Positions 5,244-36,006 of a stretch of DNA of 64,000 bases are shown here, one piece after another. This DNA comes from Planctomycetota bacterium (lineage in GTDB: Bacteria > Planctomycetota > UBA1135 > UBA2386). Position 1 is the first letter of the stretch, and each line of letters opens with the position of its first letter. Made by a program: the position numbers and the translations under genes. Below the pieces are notes generated by a model, which saw only the letters and a program-made list of their open reading frames with translations, was not told the DNA's origin and made no database searches. The stretch lies in NCBI GenBank assembly GCA_002684655.1, contig NYVR01000003.1, positions 22,974-86,973 of the forward strand. Reading direction: 5' to 3'.

Positions 5244-6266
5244 ATGAGAAGCACACTCTTTGCGGTCGCTGTCGCGACGTGCGCGATCGGTATTCGGAGT
5301 CAGGATCAGGTCACGCTCAGCAACGGCGACGTCGTCCACGGCAAGGTCGTCACGATGGCCGAGGGCAAGGTGACGATCCGATCAGCCTTGATGGGCGACG
5401 TCACCGTATCGATCACTGAGGTGATTGACTTAAAGACGGGCGACAAGGTGACCTTGAAGACCAACGAAGGTCGGACACTCCGTCGTCGCGTTGTCGGAAT
5501 CGAAGACGACAACCTCCGCCTCGATGGCGATGTGGAGGGTGGGGGATTGCTCGTGGCGAACATCGACATGATCAATCCGCCGGCGGACGACGCGCCGAAG
5601 TGGAGCGGATCCCTTAAGACGACCGCTCTATACACGAGCGGAAACACGCGTCGTGAATCCGTTGGGGTGTTGTTCGACGCGTCCCGATCGACCAAGAAGG
5701 ATCGCATCACCGTCGACGCGATCTGGAACTACGGAACCGATGAGGATGTCGCAACCGACGTGAAGACGCTGACACAGCGTCGCGCCGGTGGCGGCGTGAA
5801 ATACGACTTCTTCCTGAATGAGGGGTGGTATGCGCTCGGCACGGCGCGGGCGTTGGGCGACACACTCGCCGATCTTCAGCTTCGCTTTACGAGCGGTCTT
5901 GGCTTGGGATACACGATCATCGACGACGGCGTGACAACGCTCTTGTCTGAAGCGGGTCTCTCTTACTACATCGAGGACTACCGCACGTCCGGTCTCGCGT
6001 CGCAAGAGACCGTTTCGCTGCGGATCTCGTACAGGCTTGAGCACCAGATCAGCGAGGAAACCAAGTTGGTCCACAGGGTTGAGGCGTTCCCCTCCATCGA
6101 AGACGGTGAAGACTTCTACCTCCAAGCTGTCACCGAGCTGACGACCTCGTTGACCGACAGCATGGTCGCGTCTGTTGCGCACACAATTGACTACGACAAC
6201 ACGCCTGCTACCGGGCGCAAGAACGCCGACAACCGCGTTCTACTCACCGTCGGCTGGACCTTCTAG
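5244..6266 (+). CDS. DUF481 (YdiY-like) outer-membrane beta-barrel protein with N-terminal extra domain
   Basis: Signal peptide MRSTLFAVAVATCAIGIRSQ from ATG 5244 (the track ORF starts at 5154). The C-terminal part, WSGSLKTTALYTSGNT...VLLTVGWTF, is DUF481-like and ends in an aromatic residue. Confidence 0.6.
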   Translation: MRSTLFAVAVATCAIGIRSQDQVTLSNGDVVHGKVVTMAEGKVTIRSALMGDVTVSITEVIDLKTGDKVTLKTNEGRTLRRRVVGIEDDNLRLDGDVEGGGLLVANIDMINPPADDAPKWSGSLKTTALYTSGNTRRESVGVLFDASRSTKKDRITVDAIWNYGTDEDVATDVKTLTQRRAGGGVKYDFFLNEGWYALGTARALGDTLADLQLRFTSGLGLGYTIIDDGVTTLLSEAGLSYYIEDYRTSGLASQETVSLRISYRLEHQISEETKLVHRVEAFPSIEDGEDFYLQAVTELTTSLTDSMVASVAHTIDYDNTPATGRKNADNRVLLTVGWTF

Positions 6267-29690: not shown

Positions 29691-30851
29691 GTGCGCCACT
29701 TGCAGGATGACCAGCTGCTGCTGCGTAAAGGCCTAGAAGAGGAGGTCTACGTCGGGACCAGCGACGCGGACATCGTGCCGCTCTCTCACCGGATAGCCGC
29801 TGACTTGTCGGGGTTCGTCACTGAGCCGGACTCCCGGAACGTCGAATACACGACGCCCCCGGTTCGCTCGTACGAACAAATGCTCGACAAGTTGATGTCG
29901 CAGCGCTGTCGCCTGCGCCGCTACGTCAAAGACTTGGGTGGATATACGCTGGTGCCGGGGTCGACGATGTCGATGGTCACGGACGATGAGTTCTTCATCT
30001 CCAACCCAAAAAATCCGTACTACCGATTTATTCGCGACAACTACGGCACCGACGTGGTGACTGCGAGCACGCACATCAACCTCGGCATCGCGGACCCCGA
30101 GCAGCTCATCAAGGCATACCGGCTGCTCCGAGCTGAAGCGTCGATGTATCTCGCCCTCACCGCGAACTCGCCGTTTCGTTATGGCCGGCCGACGGGCGCG
30201 CACTCGACACGCTGGCAGGTGTTTCCTCCGACGCCGGCGGTCACGCCCTTCTTCGTCGATCACGCGCATTTTCGGTCATGGGTCGCCGAGCAGCTCGCGG
30301 CGGGCACAATGTTCAACCCACGCCACCTGTGGTTGTCGATTCGTCCGAACGGCCAGGGCACGCCAGACGTGCTGGAGCGCCTTGAGCTGAGGATCTGCGA
30401 CCGCATCGCTCGACCTCAGGACGTCGCTGCGATCGTCGCGCTTATGGAGGCGCGCGTATGGCAGTCTCTTGAAGACCCGAGCATCGATCCGCTCGCGGTT
30501 CGCAGCGAAGATGAGCTGCAGCAAATCTGTGCCGATAACGAACGTCGCGCCGCGGAGGCGAGCCTCGAAGCTGTGGTGACAGACTGGCAGACAGGAGAGG
30601 ACGTGTCCATGCGACGATGGATCGAGGAGTGCTGGCGCGCCTGCGTTCCTACCGCCGAGTCACACGGCTTCGCCAATCACCTCGCTCCGCTGGGGTCGAT
30701 TTTGTCGGAGGGGAACTTCTCCCAACAGTGGTTGTCACGGGTTGCCGCAGGGGCAGAGCCTCGGGACGTCTTGCGCGACGCGATCATCGAGCTCACGGAA
30801 GTGGACCGCCGTTACGATCCAGATTGCCCGTCGGCGTCATCTCGGAGCTAG
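29691..30851 (+). CDS. gshA: Glutamate--cysteine ligase (GCS family, cyanobacterial-like type)
   Basis: 386 aa. LRKGLEEEVYVGT and TASTHINLG patterns. Sits immediately upstream of gshB. Confidence 0.7.
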   Translation: MRHLQDDQLLLRKGLEEEVYVGTSDADIVPLSHRIAADLSGFVTEPDSRNVEYTTPPVRSYEQMLDKLMSQRCRLRRYVKDLGGYTLVPGSTMSMVTDDEFFISNPKNPYYRFIRDNYGTDVVTASTHINLGIADPEQLIKAYRLLRAEASMYLALTANSPFRYGRPTGAHSTRWQVFPPTPAVTPFFVDHAHFRSWVAEQLAAGTMFNPRHLWLSIRPNGQGTPDVLERLELRICDRIARPQDVAAIVALMEARVWQSLEDPSIDPLAVRSEDELQQICADNERRAAEASLEAVVTDWQTGEDVSMRRWIEECWRACVPTAESHGFANHLAPLGSILSEGNFSQQWLSRVAAGAEPRDVLRDAIIELTEVDRRYDPDCPSASSRS

Positions 30852-30865
30852 GCGGCCACGCCATC

Positions 30866-31804
30866 ATGCGACACCTGTTCATCCTTGATCCACTGGACGC
30901 ACTAGACGTTACAGCGGACACCTCCGTAGCGTTTATCCAAGAGGCGTGGCGTCGCGGCCACCGCGTGGAGGCATGTGGTGTGACGGACCTGGGACAGCGC
31001 GACGGGGACCCGTTCGTGGAGTCCGTCGAGATTGTCGCTGGCCCGGAGGGCGGCGCGTGGTACGCGTCGAGCCGCAGGCGGCGAGACCAGCTGACGGAGT
31101 ATGACGCGATTTGGATGCGGAAGGATCCACCGCTCGACGACGCGTATCTGTTCGCGACCATGCTGATGTCGCGCGCGGCGGGTCCGGTGATGGTCAACGA
31201 CCCAGGTGCGCTCCGCGACCGGAACGAAAAGCTGTTCGCGCTCGAGTTCCCCGATTTGTGTCCGACCACACTGGTTAGCCGGAGCGTTGAGGAGTTGCTG
31301 TCATTCCGCGACGAGCTGGGCGGCCAGATGATCGTGAAGCCGCTTGACGGCAACGGCGGACGCGGCGTCTTCCATATAACCGTCGGCGATCGTAACGCGC
31401 GATCGCTTGTCGAGGCCGGCACCGCGGGCGGGCGCCAGCTGCTGCTGGCGCAACGCTATATCCCGGCGGTGCGCGATGGGGATAAGCGCATCATCTTGAT
31501 CGACGGGCAGCCAGCGGGCGCCGTACTCCGCGTCCCGGCAGACGACGAGTCCCGCGCGAATCTTCACGTCGGCGCGCGCGCAGAGCGGGTCGGGCTGACG
31601 GCCCGGGATCAAGAGATCTGCGCGCGGATCGGTCCGCGGCTGCGTCAGCTCGGCGTGATCTTCGCGGGCATCGATGTGCTCGGCGATTACTTGACCGAGA
31701 TCAACATCACTAGCCCGACAGGGCTTCGAGAGATCGAGCATTTGGACGGCGTCGGGCTCGAGTCCGACGTGATGGACGTCGTTGAGGCGCGGCGAAGGTC
31801 ATGA
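30866..31804 (+). CDS. gshB: Glutathione synthetase (ATP-grasp)
   Basis: MRHLFILDPLDALDVTADTSVAFIQEA, IVKPLDGNGGRGVF, EINITSPTG. ATG 30866 is preferred over the track start 30617, which overlaps gshA. Confidence 0.9.
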   Translation: MRHLFILDPLDALDVTADTSVAFIQEAWRRGHRVEACGVTDLGQRDGDPFVESVEIVAGPEGGAWYASSRRRRDQLTEYDAIWMRKDPPLDDAYLFATMLMSRAAGPVMVNDPGALRDRNEKLFALEFPDLCPTTLVSRSVEELLSFRDELGGQMIVKPLDGNGGRGVFHITVGDRNARSLVEAGTAGGRQLLLAQRYIPAVRDGDKRIILIDGQPAGAVLRVPADDESRANLHVGARAERVGLTARDQEICARIGPRLRQLGVIFAGIDVLGDYLTEINITSPTGLREIEHLDGVGLESDVMDVVEARRRS

Positions 31805-32586
31805 TCGTCGAGCGCGTGTGGGTCGGGAACAGCCTCAGGAATTACAATTACTTGGTCGCTTGTGAGGAGACCGGCGAAGCGCTCGCGATCGATCCGCTCG
31901 CTCATGAAGAGTGCCTCCGAATCGCGCGGCGGCGAGGCTTTGAGATCACGCAAGTGCTTAACACCCACGAGCACACCGACCACGTCGCAGGTAATGACCA
32001 CGTCGTCGCCGCGACCGGCGCGGAGGTGATCGCGCATACACGGGCGAAGATCCCCGGCGTTGACCGACGAGTCGGCGCGGGCGCACACGTCCAGGTCGGC
32101 AAGACGGTCACGCTCGAGTGCATGGATACGCCTGGTCATACGATGAGCCATATTTGCCTCCTCGCCCGTGACGGCGAGGCAGCGTTGTTCTCGGGCGACG
32201 CGCTGTTCAACGCAGGGGCGGGCAATTGTCGCAACGGCGGCGACCCCGAGGCGCTCTACGAGACGTTTGCGCAGCAGCTCGAGCCGCTCGAGTCGACCGT
32301 GCGGCTGTATCCAGGTCACGATTACCTCGTCGCAAACCTCAAGTTCACGCTCGACCGCGAACCTGGGAACGCGGCCGCGACGGAGATGCTTGGTTACGTC
32401 GAGGGGCTCGACGGTGACGATTCGCCGATACTGACGATCGGCCAGGAGAAAGAGATCAACACCTTCTTCCGCCTTGGGAGCCGTGAGGTCGTCTCCGGCG
32501 TCTGTCGGGCGTTAGACGGGTTGCCGGTGGCGCCCACCGCCAAGCAGGTGTTCGTGTCGTTGCGGACGCTGCGCGATCGCTGGTGA
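31801..32586 (+). CDS. gloB: Hydroxyacylglutathione hydrolase (glyoxalase II, MBL fold)
   Basis: NTHEHTDHVAGN (HxHxDH), TPGHT, YPGHDY. ATGA overlap with gshB. Confidence 0.85.
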   Translation: MIVERVWVGNSLRNYNYLVACEETGEALAIDPLAHEECLRIARRRGFEITQVLNTHEHTDHVAGNDHVVAATGAEVIAHTRAKIPGVDRRVGAGAHVQVGKTVTLECMDTPGHTMSHICLLARDGEAALFSGDALFNAGAGNCRNGGDPEALYETFAQQLEPLESTVRLYPGHDYLVANLKFTLDREPGNAAATEMLGYVEGLDGDDSPILTIGQEKEINTFFRLGSREVVSGVCRALDGLPVAPTAKQVFVSLRTLRDRW

Positions 32587-32667
32587 CCAGCTTGTCGATC
32601 GCTCCGGGGCAAGCGCTGCTTGCGGCGAGGCGGGGCGCGGCCTAGTTTGCGACTCGCGACAACGGCC

Positions 32668-32904
32668 ATGACGATGTACGCCAACGAAATTGAAGCGCTC
32701 CTGCGGGCGCAGTTCCCTAACGCCGAGATCACGGTCGACGGAGAAGACGGCATGCACATGGGCGCCACCGTCGTCGACGAGAGTTTTCGCGGGATGAGCC
32801 GTATCCAACAGCAGCGCGCCGTCTACGCCGCGCTGAAGGGAAAGATGGACGGGCCCGACGGTGAGCTGCACGCTCTGCAGCTGCGAACGCGGGCCCCCGA
32901 GTGA
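32668..32904 (+). CDS. bolA: BolA family protein
   Basis: 78 aa from ATG 32668. BolA-like FRGMSRIQQQRAVYAAL ... LHALQL. Confidence 0.8.
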   Translation: MTMYANEIEALLRAQFPNAEITVDGEDGMHMGATVVDESFRGMSRIQQQRAVYAALKGKMDGPDGELHALQLRTRAPE

Positions 32905-32951
32905 CGACCGCCGCAGCGCGATCGACACAGCCAGATAAAACGAGGACAGCT

Positions 32952-33314
32952 ATGAGTGACATCCAAGCCCAGATCAAAGAGACGGTGGAGAGCCACGACG
33001 TCGTGCTCTTCATGAAGGGATCTAAGCTGATGCCGCAGTGCGGCTTCTCCAGCCGTGTCGCGGGCATTCTCGGCGGCCTGTCCGTTGAATACACGGACGT
33101 GAACTGCCTCGCCAACGACGCCATCCGACAAGGCATCAAGGACTTCTCTGACTGGCCGACGATCCCTCAGCTCTACGTGAAGGGTGAGTTTGTCGGCGGC
33201 TGCGACATCATCACCGAGATGACGCTCTCCGGGGAGTTGGACCAGCTCTTCGACAAGCACGGCATCGGCTACGACAAGTCTGCCGCCGAGCAGATCCGCG
33301 CCCAAAACGGCTGA
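32952..33314 (+). CDS. grxD: Monothiol glutaredoxin (Grx4 family)
   Basis: CGFS active site (MPQCGFSSRV), WPTIPQLYVKGEFVGGCDI. Confidence 0.9.
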   Translation: MSDIQAQIKETVESHDVVLFMKGSKLMPQCGFSSRVAGILGGLSVEYTDVNCLANDAIRQGIKDFSDWPTIPQLYVKGEFVGGCDIITEMTLSGELDQLFDKHGIGYDKSAAEQIRAQNG

Positions 33315-33323
33315 GGCCGGTCG

Positions 33324-33755
33324 TCAGATCTGCTTGTAGACCTTCGCGAGGCTCTCGCCATACACGTCGAGGGTCCACTCACACAGGTGACCGAAGGGCG
33401 TACAACGCACGTCGTAGCCTGTCCTTTGAAGCCGCTCCGCGAGCTCGTCCAAGAAGTCGCGCGCGAACGCAGGGTCCGCGCTCTCGGCGCCGAGGTGAGT
33501 GAAGGAATGGAGCACGACGTTGGTGAGCGCGCGTTTGTTGCAGAGCCACTTGATGTGCTTGAGCGTCTGTTGAAAAGCCCTCTTGCGCGCCGCCGCGGCT
33601 TCGTCACATGCCTCGGCGTGCGCGAAGACAACCACGCATTCGGCGAGCGTCGCGGCGACGTCCTGAGACGCGAGGGGCGCGCCGCCGACCTCGTCTAGGG
33701 ATCGCTTGAAGCTGCGCCATCCGAAGTTACGGGCCTGAAAGCAGAGCAGTCGCAT
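33324..33755 (-). CDS. Free-standing homolog of the archaeal ThrRS N-terminal editing domain (tRNA-Thr_ED, DTD-like fold), tentative
   Basis: 143 aa. MRLLCFQARNF..., VVVFAHAE, NVVLHSFTHLG and RCTPFGHLCEWTLDVYGES align by eye with the archaeal pattern MR.LLIHsDy..., VaFisVE, vfvYPFAHLs, kaPFGyyKaFkisCKGHP. Confidence 0.55.
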   Translation of the reverse strand: MRLLCFQARNFGWRSFKRSLDEVGGAPLASQDVAATLAECVVVFAHAEACDEAAAARKRAFQQTLKHIKWLCNKRALTNVVLHSFTHLGAESADPAFARDFLDELAERLQRTGYDVRCTPFGHLCEWTLDVYGESLAKVYKQI

Positions 33756-33782
33756 GTCTGAAAGCCTGTGGAGCCGGCCGAC

Positions 33783-33962
33783 CTAGACGCAGCCTCCTCG
33801 ATCGTAGAGCCGCGTCCAGTGCGTGACGAACGAGACTTCGCTCCAAACAAAGTAGATCCCTTCGCCGACGGGCACGACGAGCCCTTCGACCCATGGCGCA
33901 TCGAGGGCGGCGCCGAGTGGCGCCAGCCTCCGTTCGTCAACCGGGGTGCTCGTCTTGGGCAT
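33783..33962 (-). CDS. Candidate small protein (59 aa), not listed as such in the track
   Basis: MPKTSTPVDERRLAPLGAALDAPWVEGLVVPVGEGIYFVWSEVSFVTHWTRLYDRGGCV. By hand count 46 of 59 codons end in G/C, against roughly 64% for the overlapping plus-strand ORF. Its stop lies 27 nt upstream of, and co-oriented with, the 33324-33755 gene. Confidence 0.35.
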   Translation of the reverse strand: MPKTSTPVDERRLAPLGAALDAPWVEGLVVPVGEGIYFVWSEVSFVTHWTRLYDRGGCV

Positions 33963-34066
33963 CCTGGGGGCGATATTCGAAGCCGCCAAACAGCGCCGAC
34001 GCCTTCTGCGGTCGACCAATAAGCGATGCGCGGCCGTGGCGCTTGGCGCGTCTGCGCGGCCCGGTT

Positions 34067-34645
34067 ATGCCTTTATCTGTGACGACTGAATTCGACGCTG
34101 ACGCGGCCAAGTCCCGTCTTCTGCAACTCATCCGTGAGCGCGCCTATAAGGACGGAATCGACATCGTGCTCGCTTCTGGCAAGCGATCCACCTTCTACAT
34201 CAACGGCAAGAAGGTCTCGTTGCATCCTGAGGGTCTCTACCTGATCGGGATGCTGCTCTTGGACAAGCTGAAGAAGTATCCGGAGATCACCGCGGTCGGC
34301 GGCCTGACGATGGGCGCCGACCCGCTGGCGAGCGCGGTAGCTTGTCTGTCTCACCTCACGGGGAGGCCGTTGAAGGCGTTCCTCGTCCGCAAGGAAGCCA
34401 AGGAACACGGCACAGGTTCGCGCATCGAAGGTGACCTAGAGCCGGGAGAGAAGGTGTGCGTGCTAGAAGATACGGTGACTACCGGCGGCTCTGCGTTGCA
34501 GGCGGTCGAGGCCGTCACCGACGCCGGCGCGGAGCCGGTCGTGATCATGGCGATCGCTGACCGTGAAGATCCTGACGCGGCGAAGTTTCGCTCGGAACAG
34601 AACGTCGAGTGTCTCGTATCACTGAGCGAGATTCGGGGACAGTGA
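34067..34645 (+). CDS. pyrE: Orotate phosphoribosyltransferase
   Basis: LASGKRSTFYINGK and the PRPP loop VCVLEDTVTTGGSAL. ATG 34067 is preferred over track start 33893. Confidence 0.9.
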   Translation: MPLSVTTEFDADAAKSRLLQLIRERAYKDGIDIVLASGKRSTFYINGKKVSLHPEGLYLIGMLLLDKLKKYPEITAVGGLTMGADPLASAVACLSHLTGRPLKAFLVRKEAKEHGTGSRIEGDLEPGEKVCVLEDTVTTGGSALQAVEAVTDAGAEPVVIMAIADREDPDAAKFRSEQNVECLVSLSEIRGQ

Positions 34646-36006
34646 ACGAAGACGGCAACGCCCAAACAGTTGCGATTATCCCAGCGTTGTGCAGTGATGA
34701 CGAGGTAGACACTGCGCTGGTAGACCTCGGCGGCGTCACCGCGATCGAGCGCGTCGTGAACACCTGTGTCGCTGCGGGGGCGTCGAAAGTGATGGTGCTA
34801 CGACGTGCGATCGCCGCGCCGCTGCCCGCGGGCATCGAGGTCGAAGCCATCACTACGGGCGACAAGAGCGACGTCTCTGACAGTCTCCGTATAGCGCTCT
34901 TGAAGCTGCCGAGAGAGGCCGACGTCGTGCTGATCTTTCCGGTCGGGCACGCGCTGGTCGAGGAGGACACGGTCCTGGCGTTGCGCGCGCGCCTGCAGCG
35001 CGACGGATGCGCGATCGCTGTGCCAACGTTTCGCGGGGACCACGGCTACCCCGTAGCGATGACCCGCTCGGTGTTCAGCGAGCTTGATCTCGGGGTGCCG
35101 ACGCTGCAAGACCTGGTCTGTAGAGACGCCGTCCGCGTCGCCGGTGTCGCGACCGTGAACCACTGGGTGATCAGCGACCTGCGTCGACCCGAAGATCGCT
35201 CGGCAGCTCGTTGCCAGCTTTCGGGTCAGCCGTGGAGCACCTTGGCGCAGATGTATCGACATCGAAGCCATCGATCATTCCGTTCGGACTCCATCACGGA
35301 TGCTCAGATCGAACGACTCGTCGACGCAGCTCGCCACGCCTCGACCTCCAGCTTTATCCAAGCTTACGCGGTGATCGCGGTGCGCGACGCCGAGCTCAAG
35401 CAGCGCTGCGCGGTGCTGTGCGGAGGACAGCGCCACGTCGCGGAAGCGCCGGTCTTCTTCGCTGTCTGCGCGGACCTGAACAAGCTCGCGCGCGCATGCG
35501 CTGACCAAGGCACGATCGTTCGGAGCGACAGCTTCGAGTTGTTCCTGCAGACGACGGTCGACGCGGCGTTGCTTGGTCAGAACCTCCAGTTGGCTTGCGA
35601 GGCTGAGGGCCTAGGCGCCTGCATGATCGGCGGCGCACGCAATCAGCCGATCGAGATGGCGCGGGCGCTTGAGCTGCCCGATCACAGCTTCGTCGTCTTC
35701 GGGATGGCGGTTGGTGTTGCCGCTGATGACCCTCCTGCTCGCGGCCGCATGCCTTTGGCGGGCGTGCTCCACTGGGACCGCTACGATTCCTCGGACATCC
35801 TCGACGTGCTCCGGGGCGCAGACGACGGCATGCGCGACTGGGCGAAGCGGTGCAACGCCGAGCAGGGCGGCTACAACGGTCGGCCGGTCGACGAGGTCAA
35901 AGGTTGGTCCGAGCGGATGGCGAGGATGTGGGGGGGCGAGAGCGCCTACGCCAAGGCGCGCGAGGCGCTCCAAGAAGAGCTCCGGACGTTGGGCTTCGAG
36001 GTTTGA
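34642..36006 (+). CDS. Fusion protein: degenerate MobA/MocA-like NTP-transferase domain plus NfsA-like oxygen-insensitive NADPH nitroreductase
   Basis: The N-terminal ~190 aa (AIIPAL...LVDLGG..., VLIFPVGHALV) resemble MobA-like nucleotidyltransferases but lack the GxSxRMG loop. The C-terminal part, HRSHRSFRSDSITDAQIERLVDAARHASTSSFIQAYAVIAV...GGQRHVAEAPVFFAVCADLNK, is NfsA-like. GTG 34642 overlaps the pyrE stop (GTGA). Confidence 0.75.
   Translation: MNEDGNAQTVAIIPALCSDDEVDTALVDLGGVTAIERVVNTCVAAGASKVMVLRRAIAAPLPAGIEVEAITTGDKSDVSDSLRIALLKLPREADVVLIFPVGHALVEEDTVLALRARLQRDGCAIAVPTFRGDHGYPVAMTRSVFSELDLGVPTLQDLVCRDAVRVAGVATVNHWVISDLRRPEDRSAARCQLSGQPWSTLAQMYRHRSHRSFRSDSITDAQIERLVDAARHASTSSFIQAYAVIAVRDAELKQRCAVLCGGQRHVAEAPVFFAVCADLNKLARACADQGTIVRSDSFELFLQTTVDAALLGQNLQLACEAEGLGACMIGGARNQPIEMARALELPDHSFVVFGMAVGVAADDPPARGRMPLAGVLHWDRYDSSDILDVLRGADDGMRDWAKRCNAEQGGYNGRPVDEVKGWSERMARMWGGESAYAKAREALQEELRTLGFEV

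Follow-up and report, generated by a model that had tools for sequence, protein, structure and literature searches.

A stand-alone bacterial relative of the archaeal threonyl-tRNA synthetase editing domain with an altered substrate pocket, preceded by a methyltransferase relic

The gene, its product and the relic upstream

The window (i.e., the whole stretch of 64,000 nucleotides that was analysed) contains a gene for a protein of 143 residues that resembles the editing domain of archaeal threonyl-tRNA synthetase (ThrRS), here called the NTD, and a 59-codon ORF that lies between this gene and the spacer leading to a divergent pyrE-like gene (Table 1). As the original prediction had claimed from an alignment by eye, the resemblance extends along the whole length of the product: PF08915 (tRNA-Thr_ED), whose accession had been given correctly, covers the ORF end to end (profile positions 1-137 of 137, E 7.1e-30, 104.3 bits vs a gathering cut-off of 30.2 bits), the N-termini of the NCBIfam models for archaeal ThrRS and for Ser-tRNA(Thr) hydrolase match it too, and a phmmer search with the protein retrieves the solved editing domains of Pyrococcus abyssi (Pab), M. 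jannaschii (Mj) and Aeropyrum pernix (Ap). The motif blocks that had been pointed out are correct. A profile built from 42 bacterial relatives matches these three structures over their full length with E values of 1e-29 to 4e-22.

The AF2 model of the protein (pLDDT 91.7, pTM 0.86) superposes on the P. abyssi editing domain (3pd5_A) with a TM of 0.90 and an rmsd of 1.9 Å over 143 columns, and all of the 23 top Foldseek matches are archaeal NTDs (TM 0.84-0.90, rmsd 1.8-2.3 Å, ~143 columns), followed by DTDs at a TM of ~0.65. Both assignments, to PF08915 and to the DTD-like fold, are established. The domain stands alone in the ORF (the open frame comprises 152 aa), with neither an anticodon-binding domain nor a ThrRS core, and carries the signature motifs L82-H-S-F-T-H-L88, T119-P-F-G122 and G133-E-S-L-A-K138-V. 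The ORF is intact, every residue conserved in at least 90% of the family is retained, the GC content at codon positions 1/2/3 is 65/45/81, and dN/dS against the congeners amounts to 0.13-0.19.

Table 1. Coordinates of the features at the locus, in positions of the window, with the evidence for each
Feature	Position	Strand	Evidence
Gene for a stand-alone tRNA-Thr_ED / DTD-like-fold protein, 143 aa, bacterial NTD-like family	33324..33755	-	PF08915, AF2, Foldseek, dN/dS
59-codon ORF, deletion relic (pseudogene remnant) of a PF01596 gene for a class-I SAM-dependent O-methyltransferase	33783..33962	-	congener matches, blastn
Block homologous to the first 32 nt, counted from the start codon, of the intact O-methyltransferase gene of congener G001	33931..33962	-	blastn 29/32 (91%), L109 reverse-complement 946-977
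Block homologous to nt ~562-629 of the O-methyltransferase gene (648 nt)	33850..33917	-	blastn 52/68 (76%), L109 reverse-complement 1507-1574
Divergent spacer from the pyrE-like gene (start ~34067, +) to the relic	33963..34066	.	both ends homologous to the pyrE/methyltransferase spacer of congeners G001 and G004

The 59-codon ORF had been proposed as a possible partner subunit. The underlying observations are right (46 of the 59 codons end in G or C, i.e., GC3 78%; the ORF is on the same strand, and 27 nt separate its stop from the ATG at 33755), and its codon-position GC of 67/50/78 is indeed coding-like, but the proposed role had to be abandoned, as had the ORF as a conserved partner of any kind. 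It has no match in Pfam or NCBIfam, and a survey of the co-occurrence of the two ORFs by tblastn, with the small one extended to 78 aa, gave nothing beside the NTD-like gene at 12 related loci. What it does match, weakly, in a search of 40 related genomes, are intact ORFs of 215 and 235 aa in the congeners G001 and G004, which are divergent from pyrE, start with MPKTSTPVDE, end in EGLVVPVGDGIYF.. (the C-terminal end being also given as ..EGLVVPVGDGIYFGVKNG) and belong to the PF01596 O-methyltransferases (E 3.5e-43). The two blocks of nucleotide similarity share the frame, so that the internal deletion, as derived from the block coordinates, is in frame and comprises 516 nt, or 172 codons, with the whole SAM-binding domain. 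About 11 residues from the start of the 215-aa protein and about 22 from its C-terminus are left, the similarity stopping after ..GIYF; given that the SAM-binding Rossmann domain (profile positions ~5-200 of PF01596) is absent, the ORF is a relic and not a member of that family.

Another assembly, in which 12 of 1401 nt are different, has the same intact NTD-like gene and the same scar, and the relic is thus not an assembly artefact. The 59-codon ORF is a deletion relic of an O-methyltransferase gene and no subunit, and its good codon statistics, real as they are, were inherited from the deleted gene. For annotation, the lesson is that gene-like codon usage in a small ORF may be no more than the trace of a deletion. 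No intact O-methyltransferase gene was found elsewhere in the genome, which at 85.7% completeness does not prove its absence. Rfam elements were not found between 33000 and 34400, nor was a sigma-70 consensus promoter or a terminator detected; the old methyltransferase promoter is probably still in the spacer, now reading into the relic and the NTD-like gene.

A lost partner gene and a widespread bacterial family

In all the other full-length loci of the clade, a gene for a protein of ~266 aa lies directly upstream of the NTD-like gene and ends at, or overlaps, its start codon. The partner protein has no Pfam match, yet it shows a cupin-like G-x5-H-x-H motif (with an invariant HHDH) and one more invariant His, together with a Tat-like ERR[RS]xxWLSA segment and an Arg-rich tail. 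PF07847 (PCO_ADO) is found in 13-43% of the members of its nearest ESM-Atlas clusters, and its model, of modest quality (pLDDT 63), is most similar to the cysteine oxidases of plants and to the cysteamine dioxygenase of humans (E ~1e-7), with bacterial thiol dioxygenases ranking next. The conserved upstream partner in the clade is thus a gene for a PCO/ADO-like thiol dioxygenase, and it has been lost in the host genome: the minus-strand order is methyltransferase, GT2, partner and NTD-like gene in G001, partner and NTD-like gene in the congeners G006 and G012, and methyltransferase relic and NTD-like gene here. Since the protein of the window is nested within the partner-bearing clade (support 100/96), this loss is secondary. 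The deletion that left the relic, or a further one, removed the partner gene, which is translationally coupled to the NTD-like gene in all the closest relatives. The partner gene was not found elsewhere in the genome either, with the same reservation about an assembly 85.7% complete. The small ORF and the spacer were also considered as a remnant of the partner gene; this was rejected, as tblastn gave nothing and Smith-Waterman comparisons of all three frames with three partner proteins reached z values of at most 2.1 (14-186 of 300 shuffles were equally good).

Beyond this clade, 802 homologues of similar length match the 143-aa protein, the few with a name being called 'threonyl-tRNA synthetase editing domain-containing protein [Planctomycetota]'. 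An exhaustive search yields 248 clusters at 50% identity, nearly all of 130-145 aa, and when every GTDB species is represented by a single genome, at least 596 species prove to have a relative. The best 80 named loci all come from metagenome-assembled genomes, of Planctomycetota, Chloroflexota/Anaerolineae, Binatota, Myxococcota and a few others. The gene is present in 11 of the 14 genomes of its own genus, where it adjoins a glutathione/glutaredoxin block, and in 1 of 26 genomes elsewhere in the family and order. Longer, fused proteins were not retrieved with the single sequence; the profile search gave two fusions of 444 aa with an N-terminal MBL-fold domain (P0270 and P0271), as well as one archaeal-type ThrRS at 26% identity. 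In a maximum-likelihood tree, in which the archaeal type is represented by one sequence (P0272), this domain is set apart by a very long branch, and the bacterial proteins form a compact set that excludes it. The stand-alone bacterial proteins form a distinct and widespread subfamily. A literature search found no paper on PF08915 in bacteria or on this stand-alone family, which is unstudied and has a rebuilt substrate pocket.

The upstream neighbours on the same strand were tallied at 58 loci. The most frequent is a TrpG-like GATase following a TrpE-like gene (14 loci, in Binatota and the 'delta' clade), with an SH3_3 protein coming next; M19 dipeptidases, often behind a PIG-L deacetylase (Anaerolineae), and PCO-like cupins account for eight loci each, and AsnRS, the sole aminoacyl-tRNA synthetase among these neighbours, and MBL hydrolases for two each. 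At one further locus an AstE/AspA gene lies upstream with an overlap of 4 nt, and at one locus an adenosine deaminase gene does. Each upstream context has one or two origins on the tree, and the downstream neighbours are unrelated across the family. A universal gene partner was looked for and rejected, the contexts being clade-specific; they are leads and no evidence of function. They point mostly to small-molecule or peptide metabolism over translation, which counts against the deacylase reading discussed below.

The host genome (3.69 Mb in 176 contigs) has a single PF08915 gene. Its ThrRS, of which there is also one, is of the canonical bacterial type: it comprises TGS, tRNA_SAD, catalytic and anticodon domains, and its N2 editing motifs are intact (HSAAH and CKGPH, i.e., HxxxH and CxxxH). 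There is one canonical DTD as well; DTD2 was not detected in the assembly, which is 85.7% complete. With an N2-editing ThrRS and a DTD both present, the NTD-like protein fills no editor gap, and the idea that it replaces a missing editor was rejected.

Conserved loops and changed side chains

In the P. abyssi domain, the side chains within 6 Å of the scissile bond are those of P80, F81, A82, H83, Y120 and K121, joined from the second subunit by E134 (PMC4491819). By HMMER mapping they correspond to S84, F85, T86, H87, L124, C125 and K138 of the 143-aa protein. Over 265 distinct bacterial members, F85, H87 and L88 are each conserved at 99% and P120 and G122 at 97% each, so the loops that would hold the aminoacyl-adenosine are the best-conserved parts of the family. 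The histidine of the archaeal AHL motif, which had been described as retained in the form of THL, is accordingly H87, aligned with Pab H83. The replacement of YK by LC and of KGHP by YGES had been noticed as well and holds, and both the phmmer and the family-profile alignments agree in placing L124 and C125 at Pab Y120 and K121. Across the 265 members, the first of these positions is mostly F (70%) or L (12%), the second C (76%), N (10%) or L (7%), and that of E134' is K (90%) or R (9%), together 99%. Conversely, H83 and S84 (98% each), W70, K66 and K74 are near-invariant in the bacterial family and missing from the archaeal domain.

The mutation K121M severely compromises the editing of Ser-tRNA(Thr) by the Pab, Ap and Mj NTDs, while the mutants Y120A and E134A retain activity and specificity, and catalysis in the NTD is assisted by the 2'-OH of the tRNA (PMC4491819). 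The bacterial family thus keeps the scaffold, but not the single side chain on which the archaeal reaction is known to depend, and the charge of the cross-subunit pocket residue is inverted (E134' to K/R). With K121 absent, activity would need other means of placing the catalytic water, and we suggest K138' as a possible substitute.

The cross-subunit position presupposes a dimer. The homodimer prediction scores 0.81 (vs 0.00 for the best of three controls), with a contact agreement of at least 100% and a partner pLDDT of at least 87 in the runs; the mark is reached by 20 of 30 proteins solved as same-chain pairs and by 1 of 23 solved as single chains, counts that hold roughly, as our own alignment was supplied. 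In the predicted dimer, K138 of one copy contacts F85 and H87 of the other. This speaks for, but is no proof of, a homodimer that has its active sites at the interface, with a residue from the other subunit in each pocket, although archaeal NTD dimers have been solved and the prediction may echo them.

Two other roles for pocket residues were tried and set aside. C125 as a catalytic nucleophile does not fit a position that is C, N, L, S or H across the family. As for the archaeal counterpart of H83, the titles of solved biphenylalanine-variant entries list Pab I11, F42, Y79 and F123 as jointly mutated. H83 aligns with Y79, and H83-x3-H87 as a new metal site was dropped for that reason. The four positions we take, from design studies, to be buried in the core, in which case H83 is probably core-facing.

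Possible function

Unlike the archaeal editing domain, which is fused to a synthetase, the bacterial protein stands alone, and their identity is only ~22-26%. Both share one Pfam family end to end, the DTD-like fold (TM 0.87-0.90), the FxHL and PFG loops, the histidine of Pab H83 and, as predicted here, the homodimer with its cross-subunit pocket residue, whereas the archaeal Y120/K121/E134 are F/L, C/N/L and K/R in the bacterial family. Judged by pocket residues and domain architecture, the 143-aa protein would not qualify for the functional class 'Ser-tRNA(Thr) editing domain'.

A precedent for action in trans is offered by the crenarchaeal ThrRS-2 or ThrRS-ed (Aeropyrum pernix, 4RR6 and related), which acts apart from the catalytic ThrRS, as the NTD-like protein putatively does; fold and Pfam family are common to both (E ~1e-22 to the bacterial family profile). 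The original prediction had cited Crenarchaeota that encode the domain as a separate protein; separate it is, but not a bare domain, since ThrRS-2 retains the anticodon-binding domain along with the archaeal Y/K/E pocket (PMC4491819). Here, in contrast, a bare domain with a changed pocket sits in a cell whose ThrRS already edits.

DTD (PF02580) is likewise a stand-alone homodimer of ~145 aa with the same fold, a trans-acting and tRNA-unspecific deacylase, and has a hydrophobic Met where the archaeal NTD has K121. The 143-aa protein differs from it in having no PF02580 match (up to E 1), in the lower structural similarity given above and in its loops, HSFTHL and TPFGHL, which contain no Gly-Pro dipeptide and lack the DTD motifs SQFTL and NxGPVT (Gly-cisPro; PMC5802732); moreover, the host has its separate DTD. 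The animal-specific ATD, which edits Ala-tRNA(Thr), sets a precedent for a stand-alone paralogue of the DTD fold with shifted specificity that works beside DTD and an editing ThrRS, even though it is DTD-derived (with a Gly-transPro motif) and found in animals only, while the bacterial family is either a descendant or a sister group of the NTD branch. The three functional classes of the DTD-like fold studied so far (DTD, archaeal NTD and animal ATD) all proofread mischarged tRNA by an RNA-assisted mechanism. If a fourth branch exists, bacterial and stand-alone, in hundreds of species from at least four phyla, then either translation has a further level of quality control or the fold has been put to another use. 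Proteins that databases call 'threonyl-tRNA synthetase editing domain-containing protein' should not be taken for a 'Ser-tRNA(Thr) editor' on the strength of that name.

The replaced pocket side chains, the missing anticodon-binding domain and a host with an N2-editing ThrRS and a DTD argue that the protein is not a plain Ser-tRNA(Thr) editor, and most likely acts in trans on a different aminoacyl-tRNA. We therefore favour, with moderate confidence, a trans-acting, DTD-style, homodimeric aminoacyl-tRNA deacylase with a new specificity. The proteins would form a homodimer with two pockets at the subunit interface, each combining the F85-x-H87-L88 and P120-F-G122 loops of one subunit with K138 from its partner. 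The pocket would bind the 3'-terminal aminoacyl-adenosine of an aminoacyl-tRNA, and hydrolysis of the ester would be aided by the tRNA's own 2'-OH, by homology with NTD and DTD. The target would be a different mis-acylated, or a non-standard, aminoacyl-tRNA, reached in trans as by DTD; as the protein has no anticodon-binding domain, only the acceptor end is left to guide any choice of tRNA, just as with DTD. The original prediction had spoken of a trans-acting aminoacyl-tRNA or ester deacylase with altered specificity; a trans-acting deacylase with altered specificity is still the best reading of the domain, the fold and the pocket changes.

According to a rival reading, the protein is no tRNA enzyme, and its pocket has been re-used for a small aminoacyl/acyl ester or amide, or for an adenosine metabolite, in the metabolism of amino acids or low-molecular-weight thiols. 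The archaeal pocket side chains, which are not retained, speak for it, as do the neighbourhood data (TrpG-like at 14, M19 dipeptidase at 8 and PCO/ADO-like cupin at 8 of the 58 loci, the AstE/AspA overlap, the fusions P0270 and P0271, the adenosine deaminase neighbour). It is nonetheless rather doubtful: all the characterised members of the fold (DTD, NTD and ATD) are aminoacyl-tRNA deacylases (PMC5802732), the two main-chain loops for aminoacyl-adenosine are what the family conserves best, and clade-specific contexts with unrelated downstream genes fit a self-contained housekeeping function better than a single pathway. A more unlikely extension of the deacylase reading itself, and a highly speculative one, would make the family a fourth functional class of the fold that proofreads anionic or thiol-derived aminoacyl-tRNAs (e.g., cysteine-sulfinyl and other oxidised or acidic analogues), an idea drawn from the PCO/ADO-type coupling in Planctomycetota, the glutathione block of the genus and the PIG-L and M19 genes in Anaerolineae.

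The same redox context can be turned in favour of a protein that still edits Ser-tRNA(Thr), as a back-up in trans for the N2 site of ThrRS, for example when the catalytic cysteine of the latter is oxidised. Oxidation inactivates the editing cysteine of E. coli ThrRS, and an editor of the DTD fold, which needs no catalytic side chain, would resist it; the adjacent glutathione/glutaredoxin block and the thiol dioxygenase-like gene upstream in the relatives fit redox stress, and the archaeal Ser-tRNA(Thr) editing domain is the closest relative in both sequence and structure. Furthermore, as Y120A and E134A mutants stay active and specific (PMC4491819), changed side chains need not mean a changed substrate. 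This does not hold for K121, whose mutation to Met cripples the Pab, Ap and Mj enzymes (PMC4491819) and which is Cys here and C/N/L in the family. Together with the charge inversion at E134' in 99% of the members, the lack of an anticodon-binding domain to select tRNA(Thr) and the intact editing motifs of the host ThrRS, it makes a back-up editor unlikely.

Lastly, with its operon partner gone and the original upstream region no longer in place, the NTD-like gene could be heading for decay, and in its strongest form this would make it a leftover in the host genome, neither expressed nor needed after the deletion of partner and promoter. The partner is present in all the other members of the clade that were examined and missing here, a deletion scar lies upstream and a consensus promoter was not found. 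Such a leftover is nevertheless very improbable, since the ORF is intact and keeps all the residues conserved at 90% or more, its dN/dS is low (0.13-0.19), the second assembly (12 of 1401 nt different) carries the same intact gene beside the same scar, and many family members in other phyla have no PCO-like partner.

Possibly thiol-related neighbourhoods

In the Planctomycetota clade, a conserved gene encoding a partner protein of ~266 aa lies upstream of the NTD-like gene (that of the stand-alone tRNA-Thr_ED/DTD-like-fold protein), in an arrangement of translational coupling. The partner has no Pfam match, and its alignment (A3), comprising the three representatives in the table and ten more, shows an invariant HHDH and one more His, together with an N-terminus carrying a Tat-like segment and a poly-Arg C-terminus. 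The protein looks like a thiol dioxygenase of the PCO/ADO type and, to our knowledge, PCO/ADO-like proteins of this kind seem to be undescribed in bacteria. In Anaerolineae, the NTD-like gene follows, in an operon-like order and after a gap of 8 nt, the genes for a PIG-L family deacetylase and an M19 dipeptidase. Some members of each of these two families act in low-molecular-weight-thiol pathways, an echo of the thiol-dioxygenase link in the Planctomycetota.

In the window, the glutathione/glutaredoxin block and the NTD-like gene end with their stop codons 9 nt apart, a convergent layout that is preserved in four congeners (G001, G006, G008 and G012). Also in the window, a pyrE-like phosphoribosyltransferase gene, whose product scores 18 bits against PF00156 (under the Pfam threshold), overlaps at its stop the start of an ORF encoding a MobA-like and nitroreductase fusion.

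Features around NTD-like genes (L, loci in other genomes)
Feature	Locus and position	Strand
~266-aa partner (A3)	L016:1932-2735	-
~266-aa partner (A3)	L015:1937-2734	-
~266-aa partner (A3)	L021:4186-5001	+
PIG-L, M19, NTD-like order	L051, L054, L057, L070, L088, L090	
pyrE-like gene and overlapping 465-aa ORF	window 34067-36006	+
gshA, gshB, gloB, bolA, monothiol glutaredoxin (convergent to NTD-like gene)	window 29691-33314	+
Asparaginyl-tRNA synthetase (immediately upstream, same strand as NTD-like gene)	L084:4652-5986	+
Asparaginyl-tRNA synthetase (immediately upstream, same strand as NTD-like gene)	L076:507-1883	+
MBL/NTD-like fusion (P0270/P0271 entry)	L106:5001-6335	
TrpE/TrpG/NTD-like string	L042, L046-L049, L059, L060, L062, L066, L073, L075, L081, L086, L095, L101; ~position 6001 in full-length loci	

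Other neighbours and fusions

The sole direct link to translation found in these neighbourhoods is an asparaginyl-tRNA synthetase gene, which adjoins the NTD-like gene in two Chloroflexota genomes.

In P0270 and P0271, two 444-aa homologues from different sources, the NTD-like domain forms the C-terminal part of a fusion whose N-terminal part is an MBL-fold hydrolase domain with weak likeness to ComEC. An MBL gene stands immediately upstream of the NTD-like gene in two further loci.

Within a clade of Binatota and 'deltaproteobacteria', the NTD-like gene takes third place in a conserved string, preceded by TrpE-like and TrpG-like genes and followed by one for an SH3_3 protein. The string has a divergent IclR regulator at its head, and genes for an Amidohydro_2 protein and for an MFS transporter lie convergent to it.
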